A stretch of DNA of 62,961 nucleotides, filler included, from Octopus bimaculoides (GCF_001194135.2; 3 parts of 3 records of this genome joined end to end with filler, not necessarily neighbours in it); one strand, 5' to 3'; shown: positions 56 through 58,390, counted from the whole stretch's first letter. Program-made: numbers and translations. Notes: generated from the letters alone by a model not told the origin.

Positions 56-310
56 TTATTTACATTATTTACATTTGACGGATATTTGTCCTCATCTTAT
101 TTGTTGTTAACACAACGTTTCGGCTGATATACCCTCCAGCCTTCGTCAGGTGTCTTGGGGAAATTTCGAACCTGGGTTCTCATTCCTAACGATGATACTA
201 TTATTATATTATTATTATTATTATTATTACTATTATTAATCAGGTCGCTGCCGTGAATCGAACACGGAATCTTGGGGTTAGTAGCCCGCGCTCTTAACCA
301 CTACGCCATA
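56..310 (-). mobile_element. tRNA-headed SINE (family C) carrying a hammerhead ribozyme, full-length copy
   Basis: Minus strand begins TGGCGTAGTGG (A box) ... GTTCGATTC (B box), then an (AAT)n linker and the HHR. Exact 8-bp TSD tggttgta at 48-55 and 311-318. Second copy at about 58157-58390. Confidence 0.85.
110..153 (-). ncRNA. Minimal type I hammerhead ribozyme
   Basis: Minus strand: acac CUGACGA a ggcug-gaggguauau-cagcc GAAA cg U U gugu. Stem I acac/gugu, stem II ggcug/cagcc, palindromic ACGU stem III, GUU cleavage triplet. Confidence 0.75.
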
Positions 311-521
311 TGGTTGTAGTTGTCAGTCTCTGATTTGGGATGGTAGCAGAGTAGATGAGACAAAGATGTAGAAGGATAATAGTGTAACTATGTTGTGTTT
401 GAAAGAAACTCGTATATTCAGCATTAGCATGAGAGTCGGTTGGTACCACCGGCGAATGTGCTGCTGTCAGGAGTTTCTTGAAGTTTCCTGAAGAAAGGAG
501 TATCTCGTAACTCAAACAATA

Positions 522-991
522 CTCTTTACTCTCTTTTACTCTTTTACTCTTTTACTTGTTTCAATCATTTCACTGCGGCCATGCTGGAACACTGCCTTTT
601 AGTCGTGTAAATCGACCCCAGGACTTATTCTTTGTATAAGCCTAGTACATATAGCCTAGTACTTATTCTATCGTTCTCTTGTTGCTGAACCGCTAAGTTG
701 CGGGGACGTAAACATACCAGCATCGGTTATCAAGCGATGGTGGGGGGACAAATACAGACACACAAACACACAAACACACACACATATATATATATATATA
801 TATATATATATGTATATATGTATGTATACGACGGGCTTCTTTCAGTTTCCGTCTACCAAATCCACTCACAAGGTTTTGGTCGGCCCGAGGCTATAGTAGA
901 AGACACTTGCCCAAGGTGCCACGCAGTGGGACTGAACCCGGAACCATGTGGTTGGTAAGCAAGCTACTTCCCACACAGCCACTCCTACGCC
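522..991 (-). mobile_element. tRNA-derived SINE family A (internal microsatellite, (GTAAAAGA)n tail)
   Basis: Head ggcgtaggagtggctgtgtgg ... ggttccgggttcagtccc, central (TA)/(TG)n, 3' tandem gtaaaaga. More than 12 homologous copies in the window. Confidence 0.85.
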
Positions 992-1913
992 TATTCTTAG
1001 CTTTACATTAATTACTATCTTCTCCGAATCGTTCGTTCTTAGCCACCGACAATACCACCGTCACTCCATTTGATCGCCGTTGCGAATAGTAATACATATG
1101 TTGTCGCATATAGGAGAACTCGGCACTTATACTATGTGGTCTGTGGTTTGCAATGTCTGGACAATACTCCATAATCATGAGGTAGCCTTCTTATTTCATG
1201 ATTGAATTACACCTGTCTCTTCCTGCTCACTGCCATCTCAATAATAGACACATGACAACTATTCTTGAAAAACTATTTCTACGCCTGTATCATACTGATA
1301 TCCCTAATAAAGACATTAAACACCGCATTTCAAAAACATCTGATCTGCAGATATAGCTTCAGATTTTAGGGCCCATTTTTCCGATTCATAGTTGGCCTTA
1401 CTCTCTGCCATTAACTATTAACCCACCTGTTCCAGATCATGCTTTATTTTAATGTCCTGGGTATGTCTATAATCTTCACCCGGTAGTGGAGTCCTAGGTT
1501 TAGAGGCGTGCGGAACAACTTCTTAACTCCTACTTTCCCATGTCTGCTCTAATCCGGAGTAGTAGCAAATGTTTGTATCCCTGCTATTGGATAACTAGCA
1601 TGTAAACTACAGGGAGTGAAGGACCTCTAGGAGAAGGTAAACGCATATACAAAAAAAAAATTGAAATGCACTTCGTTCTTGATGGTCTCAACCATTGATG
1701 TGTCACTGGTTTTATAGCTTGTTGCGCTGAAAAGTGGGTTCCCTACTGAGCAACGCATTATCAACTCAAAACAAATTCACACACAGAAACTTTATGACTC
1801 TCATAACGTTTATATAGACTTACTTTTATACATTACATTTATATTGATTTACTATACATTATACATTACGTTTATATAGACTTACTATAGATTTAGGAAG
1901 TGGCCTTACTTTG

Positions 1914-2231
1914 TTACAAGTTGGCTTCTATTTCACCGTCGTAAGCTTGCCGAAGCGTGTTCAATGTCTCTCTAACAGACTTCTCGCGTTTAACGCAATG
2001 TTTCACGTTGGCTCTTTGTTCCATCTTCCCGTCCATGACAAAAATCGCAAACCACAACATACACGTGATCACGAAAACGCAAATTTCACGACTTGCGAAG
2101 TAAACACGGCGATGTCACTCGACACACAGCCTCATCACGGTCACTGCTAGTTCTCACTGCGCATGTAACCATGTGTTGCCATCTGTTGGCGCGTTACAGA
2201 ACTAGTCCGGGAAATTTTTGATACCACTTCG
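1914..2231 (-). mobile_element. mariner transposon 5' fragment
   Basis: TA followed by TIR-like cgaagtggtatcaaaaatttcccggact; ORF from 2036 reads MDGKMEQRANVKHCVKREKSVRETLNTLRQAYDGE, matching mariner N-terminal MEQRANIKFC. Confidence 0.7.
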
Positions 2232-2559
2232 TACATGTTGGAGGTACTAATGAGACCCTTGTTTTTACGCTTTCTAACCCATTTGTTACTGTACTGTTAA
2301 AACACAAACCCTACAGTATGTTGCACTTCGTAATGATTTCGTGTAATCATCAAGCTAGGTGGCAGGATCTTGCACTTCGCGCCATTTATTTTAATGCCTT
2401 GTTGTTTATACGATTTGAGTAAGTGTTTACAGAATATGTTAAGTTGTAAAAGATATGGCTATTAGGGTTGTATCATCAGTATATCTAACAACTATGAAGA
2501 GAATACGTCAGTGTATACAAGACTTTCGACATAGTCTTTCAATTTCACTCGCAAGAAAT

Positions 2560-2853
2560 TCTAGGAAGTTGCGGAAAAGGGTGTGAGATGCAATTAGTCG
2601 ATTTAATGTGAGACCTTGTGGAGACACTGTTGATGTCATATTCGTAGTCAGACAGATAATTGAAAAAGCACAGGAACACCAAGTGCCTTCGCACTTCAGA
2701 GTCACCGATTTTAACGCTACCATCGATACCATCTGGCGAAAGGCCTTACTCACAGTAATAGGTGTAAACTCCCAGATAATGCGTATTTTAGAGTTGCTAT
2801 ACTGTAACACCGTGTGTGGTGCTACGATCATAGATGGTCAGCTGAAAGGTTAG
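2560..2853 (+). pseudogene. RTE-clade LINE reverse transcriptase fragment
   Basis: RQIIEKAQEHQVPSHFRVTDFNATIDTIWRKAL resembles the RT segment RQ..EK..E......F.DF.KAFD.V.R..LW; truncated by a gap. Confidence 0.7.
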
Positions 2854-56164: not shown

Positions 56165-56345
56165 CACAAGGCTAGCAATTCCGGTGGAGGAGGTAAGCCA
56201 ATTACATTGACCCCAGTGTCCAACCTCAAAAGGATGAAAGGCAAAGTCAACCTTGACAGAATTTGAACTCAGAACATAAAGGCGGATGAAATGCCACTAA
56301 GCATTTTGTCCAGCATGCTAACGATTCTGCCAGCTCATCGCATTA
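56165..56345 (-). mobile_element. SINE family B, CpG-decayed
   Basis: Homology to family B; a similar old copy lies at about 57090-57300. Confidence 0.7.
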
Positions 56346-56622
56346 GATGAATATTAATAACTCGTGCTATATACACAAAGAGGCAATGTGAAGAGGATTG
56401 TTCTTTCTTTTCATACTTTCTGCAAATGTAACTGAAGGGAAAGACAAAAAGTGTTCTGTTGAAGTCATTAAAACTGTTTACCTATAGATGGACATTTCAA
56501 TTACCAAAGCTCATGTAAGTGACGCTATGAACCACAAGGGGATACTTTGATATTCTTGCATTCATCCCAAAAGTCCTCTCTCTCTTTTACTAAGTCAATT
56601 AACTGGCTAGAAATAGCTACTA

Positions 56623-56856
56623 AAAGGTGGCGAGCTGGCAGAAACGTTAGCACGCCGGACGAAATGCTTAGCGGTATCTTGTCTGCCGCTACGTTCTGAG
56701 TTCAAATTCCGCTGAGGTCGACTTTGCCTTTCATCCTTTCGGGGTCGATTAAATAAGTACCAGTTACGCACTGGGGTCGATATAATCGACTTAATCCATT
56801 TGTCTGTCCTTGTTTGTCCCTTCTGTGTATATCCCCTTGTGGGCAGTAAAGAAATC
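56623..56856 (+). mobile_element. Young SINE family B (alternative tail)
   Basis: 14-bp TSD agaaatagctacta at 56609-56622 and 56857-56870; CpGs largely intact. Confidence 0.9.
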
Positions 56857-57659
56857 AGAAATAGCTACTAATTCAATTCTCTCTCAAACACTCTCCTCTG
56901 TTACTGTCTTAATGAAGGTCATGTTATGTCATGTAATTTCAAGTGCATTGTGTCCAGGGAAAACCTGGGGATGGTCATAGCTTGAATGCCTTTGGTCATA
57001 AGCTTGCTTCATCAGCATTGATGAAAGTTAAACTCTAACATCAATGAAAACAAGCAAAATAATTTGGAAGGAGAATGTTTATTATGATAATTCTTTCTAG
57101 GCCAGGAATTTTGTGGGGAGTGGGATAATCAATTACATCTACCTCCTGTGCTTAACTGATGCTGATTTCATTGACTTACATAAAAGTACATAAGACAAAA
57201 TTGACCTTGGTGGAATTTGAACTCAGAACATAAAACTGGAAGAAATGCCACTCAGCATTTTGTTCAGTGTGTCAATGATTCTGCCTGCTTGCTGCCTTAA
57301 TAATAATAATAATAATAATAATAATAATAATATAATATAATAATAATAACAGTAATGGTTTCAAATTTTGGCACAAGTCCAGCAATTTTCATGGAGGTGT
57401 TTACTCTGTTACATAGACTCCAGTACTGACTGGTTCATTATTTTATTGACTTTCAAAAGGATGAAAGGCAAAGTTGACCATGAGATGATTTCTAATCTGG
57501 ATGTGAAGGACCAGAACAAAAGTTGCATGGCATTTTTTTCCCATCATTCTTAACAATTCAGCAATTTGGGTGAAGGATGTAAATCGATTACATCGACCCC
57601 AGTGTTCAACTGGTATTTATTTTATAGACTCCTGAAAAGATGTACATCCAAACGTGGGG

Positions 57660-58050
57660 TGTAACCGGCCCACTTATGAGTACCCCTCATTCATTAGACA
57701 ATGAACTTTGCTTGTGAAGACCTATTGAGGCAAGTGTAAGCAAATCAAAATTGCTGACTTGGCCAATGACAGTACCACCTGACTGGCACTTGTGCCAGTG
57801 AAACATTAAAAGCACATCTGAGCATGATCGTTGCCAGGGCCACGGATTGGCTCCCATGCCAGTGACACGTGAAAAGCACCATTCGAGTGTGATTGTTGCC
57901 AGCGTTGCTTTACCAGCACTTGCTGGTGGCACATGAAAAACAACATTCGAGCATGGTCGTTGCCAGTGCCACCGGACTGGTTCCCGTGCAGGTAGCATGT
58001 AAAGACACTTTTTGAGTGTTGCCAGAACCGCCTGACTGGCCCTCGTGCTG
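57660..58050 (+). mobile_element. RTE 3' UTR-related segment with internal tandem subunits
   Basis: Repeated aaaagcac(c)attcgag..(g)tcgttgccag units resembling 46070-46210. Confidence 0.55.
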
Positions 58051-58082
58051 GTTGCAATAATAATAATTATTATTATTATTAT

Positions 58083-58390
58083 TCAAGTCACTGCCTGGAA
58101 TCGAACTCGGAATTTTGGGTTAGTAGCCCACGCTCTTAACCACTACGCCATATACCAAGAGTGCGGGCTATTAACCCCAAGATTCTAAGTTCGATTCCAG
58201 GCAGTAACTTGAATAATAATAATATCGAAAAATACCTTAGGAATGAGAACCCAGGTTTGAAATTTCCCCAAGGCACCAGATGAAGGCTGGAGGGTATATC
58301 AGCCGAAACGTGTTAACAAACAAGATAAGGACAAGTATCCGTCAAATATAAATAATGTACATAATTCCTCATCTCTTAAATATAGAACTG
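58083..58390 (+). mobile_element. SINE family C copy with inverted duplicated tRNA head and degenerate HHR
   Basis: Minus-strand head 58083-58150 faces a truncated plus-strand head from 58157; body matches 56-310. HHR at about 58273-58314 has CAGAUGA and a short deletion after GAAACG. Confidence 0.8.

Follow-up and report, generated by a model that had tools for sequence, protein, structure and literature searches.

A 62,961-nt stretch of DNA from Octopus bimaculoides (GCF_001194135.2; the whole stretch is called the window below) contains several hammerhead ribozyme motifs. With a probability of about three in four, these motifs are type I hammerhead folds located in the 3' ends of Hydra-1_Obim, a Penelope-like element (PLE), and of elements without an open reading frame (ORF) that were likely copied by Penelope enzymes; most of the motifs are damaged and predicted to be inactive. 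The carriers bear PLE marks (internal start of reverse transcription, tails, inverted 5' copies) and are therefore read as PLE ends and PLE passengers. The motif density is known PLE biology, and the octopus Hydra element is already in print. The novel part is likely a family resembling a short interspersed nuclear element (SINE), with a tRNA-like head and likely mobilised by a PLE, which carries two of the motifs (H1 and H5) and resembles SMalpha of schistosomes.

Hammerhead motifs in the window

The window is animal DNA rich in microsatellites, with assembly gaps present. An earlier reading made from the sequence alone (the sequence-only reading) had placed five hammerhead motifs in it, designated here H1 to H5, and inspection confirmed the coordinates and strands of all five as well as the quoted stem III sequences (ACGU, a 12-nt AU-rich palindrome, ACAGCUGU and ACUC-G-GAGU). 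The four carriers are likewise real, as H1 and H5 belong to one family and H2, H3 and H4 each lie in an element that has no further copy in the window. A sixth motif, H6 (24456-24510 (-), core at 24504 (-)), is decayed and had been overlooked; it was found by a scan for intact 5' cores. The description of four motifs as non-degenerate was overstated, since only H1 conforms fully and H2, H3 and H4 each have a defect.

H1 (109-154 (-)) is a type I minimal hammerhead with a bulged A after A9, a 5-bp stem II, an ACGU stem III and a GUU cut triplet; it is the only motif in which the core is intact and both stem I and stem II reach 5 bp. H2 (23758-23815 (-)) has an intact core and a palindromic 12-nt stem III, with stems I and II decayed (stem I has 3 bp, and the basal part of stem II just 2 contiguous pairs). 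H3 (30588-30636 (+)) is of Hydra type and carries U4>C, and H4 (54543-54616 (-)), also of Hydra type, has an intact core and stems of 5+8 bp, with an unpaired C before G12. H5 (58273-58314 (+)) is decayed: it carries U4>A and, compared with H1, lacks 3 nt in stem III/I. Hence, the core CUGANGA plus GAAA with a NUH cut site is present in H1, H2, H4 and the majority sequence of the H1/H5 family and is absent from the window copies H3, H5 and H6. The stems I-III around it are good in H1, H3 and H4 and weak in H2; altogether, core or stem damage affects four of the six motifs.

Chance matching in repeat-rich DNA is a highly improbable origin of the motifs. Their density lies above that of block-wise dinucleotide shuffles of the window at all six settings of a descriptor composed after the motifs had been seen. 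The strict setting gave 1 hit against a shuffle mean of 0.04-0.06 and the relaxed setting 2 against 0.18-0.22 (100 shuffles each); for four more descriptor sets, the observed counts and means were 3 and 0.17, 2 and 0.05, 4 and 0.82, and 3 and 0.12, with none of 40 shuffles attaining the observed count in any set. The 0.82 hits per shuffle of the loosest descriptor and the poor fold of H2 speak for chance, as does Rfam, whose hammerhead models found no match in four local scans over H1-H4 and H6 and are absent from the 150 entries listed out of 181 matches for the window as a whole. However, H6 matches a published hammerhead, the core is restored in the majority of the H1/H5 family and stem III sequences recur among Hydra elements (see below), so that chance is largely refuted for H1, H4, H5 and H6. 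An extra weak match at 20276 (-), obtained with the loosest descriptor set, is probably due to chance.

Among rejected candidates, a CUGAAGA near 26000 (-) turned out to be an inverted copy of reverse transcriptase (RT) coding sequence, and the Rfam miRNA matches in the window are microsatellites. Tandem repeats without a hammerhead occur at 44092-44411 (162 nt, 2 copies) and 60671-60885 (42 nt, 5 copies).

Hydra-type relics and the carriers of H2, H3 and H4

The two Penelope ORF relics claimed for the window are real, as judged by tblastn. Relic 1 (24362-25972 (-)) is a frameshifted, 5'-truncated copy of Hydra-1_Obim, consisting of the RT (25972-25270), the linker and C-terminal GIY-YIG endonuclease (EN; to 24630) and the 3' untranslated region (UTR), where H6 is located. 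An inverted 5' arm (25970-26050 (+)) is a copy of 25624-25705 with 88% identity, and the element ends in a short TA run, below the cut-off of 4 units that we used for microsatellites. Its RT equals the published Hydra-1_Obim protein in 77 of 83 residues (counted by eye), and its best protein match is a UniRef entry of O. bimaculoides (69%). This entry, a 'PH domain-containing protein', includes a Hydra RT piece, which is probably a gene-model artefact. Hydra-1_Obim and its hammerhead are listed in supplement File S2 of Craig et al. 2021 (PMC8557442), and H6 and its flanks match this hammerhead except for G12>A, a single change in stem II and an altered stem III end; relic 1 is thus a copy of the family together with its listed hammerhead. 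A link between a hammerhead and a Penelope ORF, proposed in the sequence-only reading as a check, therefore exists and is already in print.

Relic 2 (45224-45780 (+)) retains linker and GIY-YIG only and represents a second Hydra-type family (28% identity to relic 1 across 69 aligned EN residues); no hammerhead was found downstream of it. The domain order led us to reject an assignment to Naiad, and the Hydra motifs an assignment of the two relics to Neptune. The CxCX5C linker and the CxxC and CxH motifs are readable in relic 1 and partly mutated in relic 2, whereas RWK and DKT belong to the RT part truncated in relic 1 and were observed in homologues. Among 8 long homologues, the Hydra diagnostics as defined in Craig et al. 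2021 (PMC8557442) were found as follows: DK[TS] in 8, CxCX5-6C in 8, CxxC..E in 7, CxH in 7 and an RWK-like motif in 5. Searching the window with 194 proteins (tblastn) revealed just three regions outside both relics (E 0.003-0.007). A full-library homology search with the EN frame gave 3154 relatives, the same search restricted to longer proteins gave no match, and neither did Pfam on four frames of the relics. The claim of several Penelope lineages holds in the form of two distant Hydra ORF relics plus a hammerhead family of non-Hydra type, which is in line with published PLE biology.

The carriers of H2, H3 and H4 contain no ORF that we could find, in keeping with the non-autonomous elements proposed in the sequence-only reading; this, too, is published PLE biology. 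The H2 carrier (23661-24357 (-)) ends in (TG)n and is composed of an inverted 5' arm (~24235-24357), a 457-nt unit (23755-24211) and a repeat of the unit's first ~95 nt, the duplicated part starting ~6 nt beyond the predicted cut (a single case, noted after the fact). The H3 carrier (30261-30696 (+), ~435 nt) sits in the (TA)n centre of an unrelated high-copy SINE-like repeat, and the H4 carrier (54454-54626 (-), ~170 nt) has (CA)n(TA)n on one side and (TA)n on the other. Together, the three carriers have six ends, of which five lie within 15 nt of a microsatellite, compared with 10% of positions as background. The proposed microsatellite preference thus stands for these three and is not supported for the H1/H5 family, where neither of the two 3' ends in the window is so placed and where (AAT)n is an internal part of the element.

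Comparison with Hydra-type elements from elsewhere (78 loci, from the best 80 of 424 matches) showed a plus-strand hammerhead in 57 loci. Stem III has at least 8 nt in 66 of the 68 plus-strand hammerhead hits; the exact stem III of H4 recurs in 3 of these hits and that of H3 in 2. In addition, the supplement of PMC8557442 gives the stem III of H4 for Hydra-2_aMil and Penelope-16_HM. In 19 Hydra-type loci, (TA)n follows the cut at 32-60 nt (9 loci) or 79-106 nt (8 loci), with 2 outliers, and the carriers in the window end 64 (H3), 99 (H2), 100 (H6) and 101 nt (H4) past the predicted cut. H2, H3 and H4 therefore share the Hydra anatomy of a long palindromic stem III, an end 64-101 nt past the cut and microsatellite flanks. 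According to PMC8557442, the Hydra clade is characterised by a C-terminal EN, a CxCX5C linker, (TA)n targets and a long palindromic stem III, the last two being common with H3, H4 and probably H2. Unlike Hydra-1_Obim, the copies in the window are truncated and decayed, the H2, H3 and H4 carriers have no match to its UTR, and relic 2 belongs to another family.

By eye, many of the 78 loci have a GCTC...GAGC(AC) hairpin-like motif in the 3' UTR, 40-90 nt past the hammerhead, which is possibly a start signal for the RT. A tblastx match of the reverse strand of the H3 carrier to the Hydra linker (E 0.005) was not reproduced by tblastn and was treated as chance. The unrelated SINE-like repeat, which has a central (CA)n(TA)n, is found at 539-988, 5636-6502, 10567-10993, 13523-13890, 30020-30863 (the copy with the H3 carrier in its microsatellite), 44517-44756, 52264-52593 and elsewhere.

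A tRNA-headed family with a hammerhead tail

H1 and H5 lie in two copies of a non-coding element of ~270 nt, whose tails are identical in 116 of 125 aligned positions. In both copies, a tRNA-like head is followed by (AAT)n and the hammerhead tail. This head, like the match of relic 1 to Hydra-1_Obim, had escaped the sequence-only reading. Copy 1 (55-312 (-)) comprises a head (~243-312) with A- and B-box-like motifs (read by eye against a consensus), (AAT)n (199-242) and the tail (55-198). Next to it, at 313-325 (+), there is a short, imperfect fold-back of the 5' end of the head (7/8 in local alignment), which is weak evidence when taken alone. Copy 2 (58157-58390 (+)) starts with a 5'-truncated head, which is followed by (AAT)n and a tail that ends sharply at 58390. 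Its inverted 5' arm (58057-58153 (-), ~95 nt) contains the full head and (AAT)n, with no tail, and is 87% identical to the head of copy 1; the sequence is self-inverted over 58071-58224. Inverted 5' arms are thus found in three elements (relic 1, the H2 carrier and copy 2). Copy 2 is followed by a ~45-nt extension (58391-58437 (+)) with a coverage of ~1% of the family depth and no second copy in the window, which is either an optional tail of PLE type or a second repeat.

Two observations concern the surroundings of these sequences. A coding exon of a WASH gene (58955-59488 (+); Pfam WASH_WAHD, E 1.5e-52) lies on the same strand as the H5 copy, which is ~560 nt upstream and probably intronic. 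Between the stop of relic 2 and a fragment resembling a long interspersed nuclear element (LINE), 36 nt (45783-45818 (+)) resemble the 3' part of the H1 tail with a score of 31, the best non-self score among 1780 windows (next 28), and the H5 tail with a score of only 18. This stretch is probably a fragment of the family or a chance likeness; as a tie between the family and relic 2 it was discarded, being weak with H5.

Contigs of 4 of 24 listed sequencing runs (three DNA runs from three organisms and one run guessed to be RNA) were aligned to 58150-58480, with 21,650, 18,202 and 27,842 contigs aligned per DNA run. In DNA run X3, the summed depth was ~4.8 million for the tail, 1.8 million for the head (~37% of the tail) and ~50 for unique flank; a diverged reference skews head versus tail depth, and summed depth differs from copy number, which detracts from the abundance deduced from it. 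The tail/flank ratio of ~10^5 agrees with the number obtained by extrapolating from two copies per 59 kb to a genome size that we take to be ~2.7 Gb, and the family would have roughly 10^4-10^5 copies in the three organisms. H1 represents the family majority, N7 excepted: the majority restores the canonical U4 (91-98% of aligned depth) as well as the stems III and I of H1, and core variants near or above 10% are confined to N7 (U>A, 12-18% in the DNA runs) and to G12, a CpG site. This confinement weakly suggests constraint on the hammerhead core of source copies, with later neutral decay.

The 3' end of the family is sharp. Per DNA run, 402-463 loose ends fall at 58390 (agreement 0.42-0.44), ~85 nt beyond the cut if two small deletions in copy 2 are allowed for; poly(A) is absent, and the 3' flanks in the contigs are heterogeneous and AT-rich. 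The family therefore shows PLE insertion anatomy, with a sharp poly(A)-less 3' end, an optional tail and an inverted 5' copy all present. Short, non-coding, interspersed and of high copy number, it also shares these properties with tRNA-derived SINEs. A LINE-derived 3' end or a simple-repeat or poly(A) tail is not what it ends in; the hammerhead tail runs to 58390.

SINEs are normally passengers of LINEs. We consider it unlikely, however, that H1/H5 is something other than one PLE-mobilised unit, be it a tRNA SINE moved by a LINE and carrying a captured PLE end, or a headless PLE end that inserted repeatedly into the (AAT)n of a separate tRNA SINE. Such origins would be consistent with the ~2.7-fold higher depth of the tail, with the 181-301 loose ends per DNA run that begin at (AAT)n, with the inverted arm of copy 2, which consists of head and (AAT)n only, and with the LINE-like fragments in the window. 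Against this, the head is no more abundant than the tail, contigs joining head and hammerhead are listed in three of the four runs, the order of head, (AAT)n and tail is identical in both window copies, a 3' tail of poly(A) or simple repeat is absent from the family, and the 5' fold-backs take in the head. The family was thus likely copied by Penelope enzymes and not by the LINEs that normally move such elements.

Still less probable is the stronger proposal of the sequence-only reading, in which the carriers would be retrozymes that are active, with tandem copies cutting themselves into linear or circular monomer RNAs. The H2 carrier is indeed the most retrozyme-like piece in the window, being a 1.2-unit partial tandem whose duplicated part starts ~6 nt past the predicted cut, yet it has one hammerhead only. 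In fact, no tandem with two hammerheads exists in the window; at least two tandem units with complete hammerheads define a retrozyme in a 2026 preprint (bioRxiv 10.64898/2026.07.22.740005), and no carrier within the window has them. Rare head-to-tail joints were seen in contigs of the H1/H5 family, but those listed are single contigs with a depth of 21-659 against millions. The run guessed to be RNA does contain family sequence, although a contig of depth 1871 spans the cut site uncut, and contigs can show neither cleavage nor its absence. Circle-making retrozymes are described from mussel, coral and axolotl (PMC7229834), but four of the six motifs in the window have core or stem damage. With one hammerhead per carrier, joints in single contigs and most copies catalytically damaged, release of circular or linear monomers is not supported.

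Concerning the identity of the partner, the only two hammerheads with a single 5' bulge among the fetched loci (L028 and L063) both follow GIY-YIG ends of non-Hydra type. The hammerhead of L028 shares with H1 the bulged A, the GGCUG stem, ACGU and U, and is nearly of H1's design. These non-Hydra PLE 3' ends (L028, 1-1300; L063, 1-400) are situated immediately upstream of Hydra ORFs, an arrangement that suggests nested insertion at shared (TA)n targets.

We propose that PLE mobilisation of the carriers would proceed as follows. A PLE protein would bind the RNA of the element and nick AT-rich DNA, and reverse transcription would start within the element, at a fixed distance of ~80-100 nt beyond the 3' side of the hammerhead, which would account for the sharp 3' end without poly(A) and for the optional tail. 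Early stops or fold-back of the cDNA would then lead to 5' truncations and inverted arms. As the whole hammerhead is kept in inserted copies, the RNA template had likely not been cut at this site (or had been re-ligated). For a Poseidon element, Frangieh 2024 (PMC11167929) reports an internal start of reverse transcription, 85-92 nt past the cut (by our subtraction), two start sites giving an optional 30-40 nt tail, AT-rich targets and uncut RNA as the main substrate; inverted 5' copies and tails are PLE hallmarks according to Craig et al. 2021 (PMC8557442). In the H1/H5 family, the tRNA-like head likely provides an internal RNA polymerase III (Pol III) promoter, and the family would be a SINE-like passenger of a non-Hydra (Neptune/Poseidon-type) PLE. 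Owing to the palindromic stem III, the ribozyme may cut only as a dimer or assisted by protein, in the few source copies. Cleavage, head-driven transcription and the partner enzyme are predictions. For the full description of the family as an octopus SINE of ~270 nt, tRNA-derived, Pol III-driven, PLE-mobilised, with an order of 10^5 copies and with its hammerhead under selection in source copies, which would place it among the most abundant ribozyme-bearing elements known, we see about even odds.

Several observations weigh against PLE mobilisation as outlined here. H2, H3 and H4 are linked to Hydra only through their anatomy, since the best blastn match between the six carriers and the 78 loci had no more than E 0.014 over 20 nt, and their carriers may be truncated pseudo-long terminal repeats rather than separate non-autonomous families. 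The head of copy 1 (251-308) matches the Rfam tRNA model (positions 8-63) with 20.7 bits (E 0.054), below the gathering threshold of 29, and ARAGORN called no tRNA in it. The 5' loose-end majority of the family is a short hairpin in three runs, which may be a constant part of the element's terminus, and a second repeat may account for the 3' extension. The window contains no autonomous partner that has the H1/H5 tail, the non-Hydra link consists of two loci only, both from other organisms, and exact-pattern scans for the hammerhead of H1/H5 returned no locus from metagenome contigs and none from two viral scans. In free dimer folds, pairing of the stem III palindromes across the two strands was seen with H2, H3 and H6 and was absent with H1, H4 and H5, and no active junction formed spontaneously.

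Comparison with known systems and other features of the window

The H1/H5 family resembles several known elements. H1 and H5 have an unpaired base following A9, G10.1-C11.1, a short stem I and a palindromic stem III, as do the minimal PLE hammerheads described by Cervera and de la Pena 2014 (PMC4209133); the latter are numerous, heterogeneous and mostly single, and neither a tRNA-like head nor a cephalopod is described in the passages compared. PAc, a Poseidon element from Anolis (Frangieh et al. 2024, PMC11167929), has in common a 3' end ~85 nt past the cut, an optional 30-40 nt tail, AT-rich targets and an uncut template. However, PAc is autonomous, tandem and tested in vitro, whereas the elements in the window are known from sequence alone.

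SMalpha has a tRNA-like Pol III promoter. Like the H1/H5 family, SMalpha and Sjalpha of schistosomes are described (PMC8490949) as short SINE-like elements with a type I hammerhead. SMalpha differs in its canonical hammerhead and satellite arrays, in contrast to the minimal PLE ribozyme, the seemingly dispersed copies and the visible PLE insertion signatures of the octopus family. Retrozymes without long terminal repeats (PMC7229834; bioRxiv 10.64898/2026.07.22.740005) are likewise ORF-less, 170-460 nt long and PLE-related, have a type I hammerhead and are commonly dispersed monomers; the preprint regards animal retrozymes as being of PLE origin. In these sources, their definition requires units in tandem, every unit having its own hammerhead, and also circular RNA in the cases tested; neither was seen here.

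In the literature searched, which excluded Repbase, Dfam and most subscription papers, no description was found of a cephalopod tRNA-headed hammerhead family or of any PLE that mobilises a tRNA SINE; for the same reason, the H1/H5 family may already be catalogued. If confirmed, a PLE-driven SINE would widen the known partnerships of SINEs, and the ~270-nt family would be a minimal natural template for recognition by a PLE enzyme in trans. The family also bears on the question of why the hammerhead is kept though cleavage is dispensable in vitro, and its many copies across related species make it possible to address what PLE hammerheads do by testing directly for covariation and selection.

Apart from these elements, the window contains a relic of a mariner-type transposase (38626-39675 (-); Pfam Transposase_1, HTH_48 and DDE_3). 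Two further frames without Pfam match were assigned by eye and are presumably a piece of a Tc1-type transposase (33467-33790 (-)) and the end of an RTE-type LINE (45812-46219 (+)). Finally, a 390-nt inverted pair (12308-12697 and 28141-28530) is 94% complementary and has a third partial copy at 41522-41716.

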